Below are positions 18,474-18,558 of a DNA stretch of 64,000 nt, piece after piece. The notes under the pieces are model-generated. The model was given only the letters and a program-made list of their open reading frames with translations, was not told where the DNA came from and searched no databases. Both the position numbers and the translations under genes were made by a program. Source of the DNA: Escherichia coli (GTDB lineage: Bacteria > Pseudomonadota > Gammaproteobacteria > Enterobacterales > Enterobacteriaceae); the NCBI RefSeq assembly GCF_003334305.1, contig NZ_QOWS01000022.1; one strand, given 5' to 3'. Positions within the stretch are counted from its first letter, which is position 1; each line of letters starts with the position of its first letter.

Positions 18474-18484
18474 AAATCGCTTTA

Positions 18485-18502
18485 CCTCAAGTTAACTTGA
18501 GG
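18485..18502. promoter_or_regulatory. SoxR binding palindrome in the soxS promoter
   Basis: Perfect 18-bp palindrome cctcaagttaacttgagg in the 85-bp soxR-soxS divergent intergenic region. Confidence 0.85.
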
Positions 18503-18558
18503 AATTATACTCCCCAACAGATGAATTAACGAACTGAACACTGAAAAGAGGCAGATTT

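Follow-up and report, generated by a model that had tools for sequence, protein, structure and literature searches.

How two divergent genes are controlled from a single short stretch of DNA, and by which element, is the question raised by the intergenic region between soxR and soxS in Escherichia coli. In the window (the whole 64-kb stretch of DNA that was analysed), the original prediction had placed an 85-bp divergent region between these two genes and had recognised within it a perfect palindrome as the operator of the redox sensor SoxR. From the evidence described below, none of which speaks against it, this region is almost certainly the E. coli soxRS control region, that is, a bidirectional promoter with one MerR-type operator. 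The system has been known for a long time and has been dissected experimentally, and there is nothing new in this main finding; the geometry and the conservation of the region are established here from the sequence, and the binding, activation and autorepression are those of published experiments.

The soxR–soxS locus and its operator

The host of the window is E. coli. A 901-bp stretch at the locus finds a match in every one of 5,426 complete E. coli genomes, with 100% identity to strain A7, an orangutan isolate; the flanking genes have been named soxR and soxS by RefSeq in all of these 5,426 genomes, and pdeC is also annotated in the stretch. The gene order is equal to that of K-12 (pdeC, soxS, soxR, ryjA, ghxP), and the open reading frames leave exactly the predicted gap between them (Table 1). 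The SoxR protein of the window is identical to K-12 SoxR and contains the CX2CXCX5C motif, with the four cluster cysteines C119, C122, C124, and C130 present. Its best matches among solved structures are E. coli SoxR itself, PDB 2ZHG (the complex with DNA) and 2ZHH, along the full 154 residues, followed by CueR and then MerR as the next relatives in the structural database, a relationship of sequence homology. SoxS shows a full-length match (107 residues) to PDB 7W5W, E. coli SoxS, and 106/107 of its residues are identical to those of K-12. The sole change, H105Q (codon 105, 18871-18873), is found two residues before the C-terminus and distinguishes the protein from both K-12 SoxS and PDB 7W5W; the SoxS of strain A7 has its own protein accession, WP_097344016.1. 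A 161-bp stretch around the intergenic region was matched in 5,421 E. coli genomes, and in 5,416 of these the identity is 99% or higher. The control region, including the whole of the 85-bp intergenic DNA, does not differ from K-12 in any position, SoxS H105Q being the only local difference.

Several RNA features have been also found in the window. The small RNA SraL/RyjA (Rfam RF01408, 153 bits; 17876-18016, + strand), annotated as ryjA at the same place in K-12, is transcribed convergently to soxR, whose final 8 nt (18009-18016) it overlaps; the SraL/RyjA terminator hairpin (17985-18015) falls at the stop of soxR, where it could act for both genes. Other Rfam matches correspond to a lysine riboswitch (99.5 bits; 62151-62347, + strand), the enterobacterial small RNA STnc430 (60107-60256, + strand), and naRNA4, a nucleoid-associated RNA, at 10568-10638 and 50706-50776 (both on the − strand), the second of them barely above the family threshold.

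The perfect 18-bp palindrome that had been claimed for the region is exact: CCTCAAGTTAACTTGAGG is its own reverse complement, with ungapped arms of 9+9, and the symmetry ends there, the flanks being A and A. With up to 3 mismatches permitted, this sequence has no second match in the 64-kb window, and the same scan gave matches in 0/100 shuffled windows. Perfect palindromy of 18 bp is on its own weak evidence and not very rare, three such palindromes being present in the window (18485, 27425, and 42044) against an average of 0.25 per 64 kb in shuffles. The strong evidence comes from which 18-mer this is and from its surroundings: the occurrence of CCTCAAGTTAACTTGAGG at this place is far beyond chance. 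With regard to the other two palindromes, the one at 27425-27442, ATTATTAAATTTAATAAT, is found in an AT-rich intergenic stretch, and the one at 42044-42061 belongs to AAGCCGGATGATCATCCGGCTT, which has a T-run after it and makes a bidirectional terminator between the convergent open reading frames 39436-41919 (+) and 42074-42946 (−).

The recognition of the palindrome as the SoxR operator agrees with the published record, where the SoxR box of E. coli is listed as CCTCAAGTTAACTTGAGG (PMC4411124). In EMSA experiments, the soxR–soxS DNA is shifted by SoxR mainly to one complex; all SoxR binding is lost when the complete site is mutated, and it is unchanged when a predicted partial half-site is mutated instead (PMC12825309). 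By this published EMSA, the box is the only SoxR site in the region. A SoxR footprint elsewhere in the region is not reported in the later literature covered, which cites or repeats the original footprint work of the 1990s. A scan for marbox/soxbox sequences, as a possible SoxS autoregulatory site, produced 107 hits where about 139 would arise at random, a level that carries no information; none of the hits falls in 18474-18558. An 8-nt perfect inverted repeat, CATAAATC / GATTTATG (18471-18478 and 18554-18561), covers both start codons; soxR and soxS both begin in the GATTTATG context, symmetrically about the intergenic region, which is possibly a coincidence.

Promoter geometry around the operator

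Table 1. Coordinates of the genes and control elements at the soxR–soxS locus, in positions of the window.
Feature	Position	Strand	Remarks
soxR CDS	18009..18473	−	154 aa; MerR-family [2Fe-2S] redox sensor; open reading frame and RefSeq annotation
soxR–soxS intergenic region	18474..18558		exactly 85 bp, gap between the open reading frames; both promoters inside
33-bp block CTTTACCTCAAGTTAACTTGAGGAATTATACTC	18480..18512		nearly invariant in the 58 species with SoxR and SoxS among the matches listed; flanks diverge quickly
soxS −35 hexamer TTTACC	18481..18486	+	mutated in the 'soxS down' construct (Table S2, PMC12825309)
SoxR operator (SoxR box), 18-bp palindrome CCTCAAGTTAACTTGAGG	18485..18502		dyad centre between 18493 and 18494
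soxS promoter spacer	18487..18505	+	19 nt, 2 nt above the optimum
soxR transcription start, G	18496	−	cappable-seq start (Table S2, PMC12825309), to within a base or so; inside the SoxR box
soxR −10 hexamer TATAAT	18504..18509	−	consensus; 18506-18509 in common with the soxS −10; 'shared −10' in PMC12825309
soxS −10 hexamer TATACT	18506..18511	+	bold in Table S2 of PMC12825309
soxS transcription start, G	18520	+	cappable-seq start (Table S2, PMC12825309), to within a base or so; leader 39 nt
soxR −35 hexamer TTCGTT, predicted	18528..18533	−	weak, 2/6 to consensus; 18-nt spacer
soxS CDS	18559..18882	+	107 aa; AraC/XylS-family activator of the superoxide regulon; open reading frame

The region has the MerR-type layout, with the box between TTTACC and TATACT in a 19-nt spacer (Table 1). 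The box covers 16 of the 19 spacer positions, and the statement that the operator lies within the soxS spacer is therefore correct for 16 of its 18 bp; the first two (CC) are outside the spacer, being the last 2 bp of the −35 TTTACC. Relative to the transcription starts, the box extends from −35 to −18 of soxS (centre at −26.5) and from −6 to +12 of soxR. It is separated by 1 bp from the soxR −10 hexamer, so that the overlap with the soxR promoter that had been proposed holds for the start site and the early transcribed region, and not for the hexamers, which the box does not cover. The TATACT of soxS and the opposite-strand TATAAT have 4 bp in common, and 23 bp lie between the two starts; overlapping −10 elements on opposite strands and this distance are the marks of a bidirectional promoter, for which a separation of '10 to 23 bp' between divergent starts has been given (PMC12825309).

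The comparison with the published soxS promoter supports these assignments. The soxS/soxR sequence in Table S2 of PMC12825309 is that of the − strand of the window and agrees with the hexamers; in its footnote, the cappable-seq starts are said to be underlined and the predicted elements to be in bold, and the soxS spacer is called 'a sub-optimal 19 bp' in the paper. The constructs described there fall on the same elements: ttcgtt is changed to ttGACA in 'soxR up', and ggtaaa (the complement of TTTACC) to CCATTT in 'soxS down' (PMC12825309). Part of the formatting of this table had been lost, and the starts at 18520 and 18496 were placed by analogy with better-preserved rows, which makes them accurate to a base or so. 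The production of both transcripts has been demonstrated by in vitro transcription and cappable-seq (PMC12825309). A generic sigma-70 scan (spacers of 16-18 nt, at least 4/6 per hexamer) detected neither of the two intergenic promoters, because of the 19-nt length of the soxS spacer and the weakness of the soxR −35; both of them were recovered by a relaxed promoter scan.

Another aspect of this geometry concerns the soxR messenger. Its leader has 23 nt, GTTAACTTGAGGTAAAGCGATTT (18496-18474, − strand), and the sole Shine-Dalgarno-like element in it is GAGG(T), 11 nt before the ATG. The GAGG (18485-18488, − strand) is formed by the final four bases of the SoxR box; from the box to the soxR start codon there are about 11-12 nt in nearly all the species with SoxR and SoxS among the matches listed. 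It is conceivable, if somewhat doubtful, that the soxR-proximal half-site might also act as the soxR ribosome-binding site; no statement of this idea was found in the later literature covered. If true, one 18-bp element would combine the operator with some of the soxS −35, with the site at which soxR transcription starts, and with the ribosome-binding site of soxR, and this would help to account for the nearly invariant 33-bp block.

In one isolate, the soxS promoter has been interrupted by a mobile element. In E. coli E138 (L122, NZ_AP022351.1), an IS1X4 copy (2211-3061) is inserted inside the soxS promoter, at the equivalent of 18499-18507 in the window, with duplication of 9 bp of the target, GAGGAATTA. 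On the side of soxR the −35 and an intact SoxR box remain, and on that of soxS the TATACT −10; judging from this arrangement, E138, a clinical isolate, would be expected to have the SoxR-dependent induction of soxS lost or rewired.

The SoxR box in other species

One genome per species was scanned for the exact 18-mer (100,044 species, 298 Gb), and it was found in the genomes of at least 120 species, against about 4.3 expected by chance. The loci compared were chosen by the exact box, and the invariance of the box among them is by construction and carries no information on box variation. The matches listed reach beyond the enterics, into Vibrio, Shewanella, Pseudomonas, alphaproteobacteria, actinomycetes, Acidobacteriaceae, and Opitutaceae. 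A SoxR homologue was detected at 150 bp or less from the box in 94 of the 120 matches listed (tblastn with the SoxR of the window as query); transcription of each of the 94 runs away from the box, and in 58 of these 94 loci a SoxS homologue is found on its other side. In distant phyla (actinomycetes, Acidobacteriaceae, Opitutaceae, alphaproteobacteria) the exact 18-mer is unchanged, usually beside a SoxR that is only 40-65% identical to the E. coli protein, and the operator is for this reason far more conserved than the regulator.

The hexamers were compared with all loci oriented like the window. Among the matches listed, the 58 loci with both SoxR and SoxS have the −35 TTTACC and the −10 TATACT at 19 nt without exception (58/58 in each case), and the opposite-strand TATAAT in 57/58. 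In the 36 loci of the matches listed with SoxR only, the −35 is TT(G/T)ACC (35/36) and a TAnnnT consensus is found at 19 nt, but the opposite hexamer is not conserved. From this pattern, the overlapping bidirectional −10 seems to be peculiar to the soxRS arrangement. Common to SoxR promoters in general are the box, the −35 TT(G/T)ACC and the 19-nt spacing to TAnnnT, and the soxRS-specific component is the overlapping TATAAT that drives soxR. In the block that is nearly invariant in the 58 species (Table 1), the 18 bp of the box are the search key and the other 15 bp were not selected. The flanks of the box are typically A...T outside the enterics, making a 20-bp palindrome, and A...A in the enterics, where the A on the promoter side creates the opposite-strand TATAAT.

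Among the matches listed, 26 loci have no nearby SoxR gene, and 21 of these 26 keep the architecture of −35, 19 nt, and −10 on one side; these 21 are unlinked SoxR targets, or loci in which soxR is beyond the stored stretch. Three more (L050, L075, and L118) consist of an A-run, the palindrome, and a T-run, in a locus from which a SoxR gene is absent; they include a Flavobacteriaceae MAG and a Candidatus Berkelbacteria genome. By their composition, these three look like intrinsic terminator hairpins that reuse the 18-mer by chance, which fits the few chance matches expected.

Activation and autorepression from a single site

Distortion of the DNA is the established activating step for SoxR and for the MerR family. 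With a shortened spacer, the basal activity is reportedly higher and the regulator becomes a repressor (Hidalgo and Demple, 1997; review, PMC9909328). The activators of the MerR family, including SoxR, kink and untwist the centre of the operator and so realign hexamers that are 19-20 bp apart (PMC9909328; PMC8113463), a mechanism that is visible in the crystal structure of the SoxR–DNA complex (PMC9909328). The oxidised and reduced forms of SoxR have a similar binding affinity, and activation is a property of the oxidised form only (review, PMC8063818). In the mechanism proposed for the window, a SoxR dimer would sit on the palindrome 18485-18502, between the soxS −35 and −10, with its [2Fe-2S] clusters reduced or oxidised. 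The 19-nt separation would misalign the hexamers for the sigma-70 RNA polymerase and keep basal soxS transcription low; only oxidised SoxR would leave the operator kinked and untwisted, with the hexamers realigned and soxS switched on, and SoxS would then switch on the superoxide regulon. On the opposite strand, TATAAT would start soxR at 18496, and bound SoxR, in either redox state, would cover this start and repress its own gene, because the start falls inside the operator.

The autoregulation of SoxR had been predicted from the arrangement of the region. The layout alone does not imply it; it follows from the mapped soxR start inside the box, and it has been borne out by experiment. As described in a later study after Hidalgo, Leautaud and Demple (1998), oxidised SoxR activates soxS and SoxR represses its own gene from a single site (PMC4411124). 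In vitro, basal transcription favours soxR over soxS, and the addition of SoxR strongly activates soxS and blocks the soxR transcript (PMC12825309). In an AlphaFold 3 model, bound SoxR occludes the start of soxR together with some of its −10 (PMC12825309). In vivo, the promoter activity of lacZ fusions was too low to measure (PMC12825309).

A different explanation would be that soxR is lowered only indirectly, the activation of soxS making the polymerase occupy the shared −10 and outcompete soxR, with the operator occluding nothing. Competition of this kind operates at acrA/acrR when SoxS activates acrA (PMC12825309), and the 4-bp overlap of the −10 hexamers makes the two orientations of the polymerase mutually exclusive. 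However, on the 'soxS down' template, in which the soxS −35 is destroyed and SoxR is unable to activate soxS, SoxR still represses soxR in vitro (PMC12825309). Because the block persists without the soxS −35, the repression of soxR is direct and does not need polymerase competition; the soxR start at 18496, inside the box, also argues against the indirect explanation, which has been largely refuted and is very unlikely. Control by two sites has been considered as well, since the ChIP-exo data of Seo et al. (2015) reportedly led to the prediction of a further, partial SoxR site, lying between the soxR −35 and the shared −10 (PMC12825309). The mutation of this site has no effect on SoxR binding, and the single main complex in EMSA also goes against it (PMC12825309); in the scan of the 85-bp region, no second half-site was found outside the palindrome at 3 mismatches or fewer of 9. 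A contribution of such a site is extremely unlikely.

The palindrome itself might be a product of chance or a structural feature, for example a hairpin or terminator, or a repeat containing the HpaI site GTTAAC, with SoxR acting elsewhere. The excess of perfect 18-bp palindromes in the window over the shuffle mean is in line with this idea, as are the palindrome at 42044, a plain terminator stem, and the terminator-like loci L050, L075, and L118, which are 3 of the 120 listed with the 18-mer. The idea is nevertheless refuted by the EMSA mutants (PMC12825309) and by the linkage to SoxR in 94 of the 120 matches listed, and SoxR acting elsewhere in the 85 bp is opposed by the same half-site scan; its probability is negligible. 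A hairpin or terminator at 18485-18502 was rejected on its own terms: there is no T-run, the palindrome is upstream of both coding sequences, and neither messenger carries both arms, because the soxS start is downstream of the palindrome and the soxR start is inside it. The reading retained is that of one operator, occupied by SoxR, that serves both promoters.

The K-12 soxS/soxR promoter and its SoxR box, reportedly described by Hidalgo and Demple (1994, 1997) and Hidalgo et al. (1998), have the same box, −35, 19-nt spacer, −10, and shared opposite-strand −10 as the window. This K-12 promoter has been directly tested by Warman et al. (2026; PMC12825309). Other MerR-type promoters, such as those of Tn501/Tn21 merR–merT, CueR–PcopA, ZntR–PzntA, and BmrR–Pbmr, likewise have a dyad operator between the −35 and the −10, with a spacer of 19-20 bp, a constitutively bound regulator, and activation by DNA distortion; the gene for MerR, too, is divergent and is repressed by its own product (PMC9909328, PMC8113463, PMC1526738). 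In contrast with these regulators, the signal for SoxR is the oxidation of its [2Fe-2S] cluster, without binding of a metal or a drug, and the operator sequence is specific to SoxR. Another example is the soxR–mfsA region of Stenotrophomonas maltophilia, in which the box is found, as here, in the 19-bp spacer of the divergent target promoter and covers the soxR start at −4 to +14 (−6 to +12 here), with autorepression in both (PMC4411124). In the enterics, the sole well-established target of SoxR is the gene of another transcription factor, soxS (PMC4411124), whereas in the non-enteric systems (S. maltophilia, Pseudomonas, Streptomyces) there is no soxS and SoxR controls effector genes directly; in these non-enteric loci, the opposite-strand TATAAT overlapping the target −10 is not conserved and the box is usually flanked by A...T. 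Among the bidirectional promoters with a shared −10 described by Warman et al., divergent starts with 23 bp between them and −10 elements sharing 4 bp are found as here, but acrA/acrR depends on polymerase competition, and soxR on direct occlusion by its regulator (PMC12825309).

The soxRS promoter has been widely used as a redox or NADPH biosensor (e.g., PMC4234026, PMC6612552, PMC7228920). The value of the present analysis is a correct annotation and not a discovery; a real operator was recognisable from the sequence alone. In E. coli, the 85-bp region is a textbook redox-operated switch of the MerR type.
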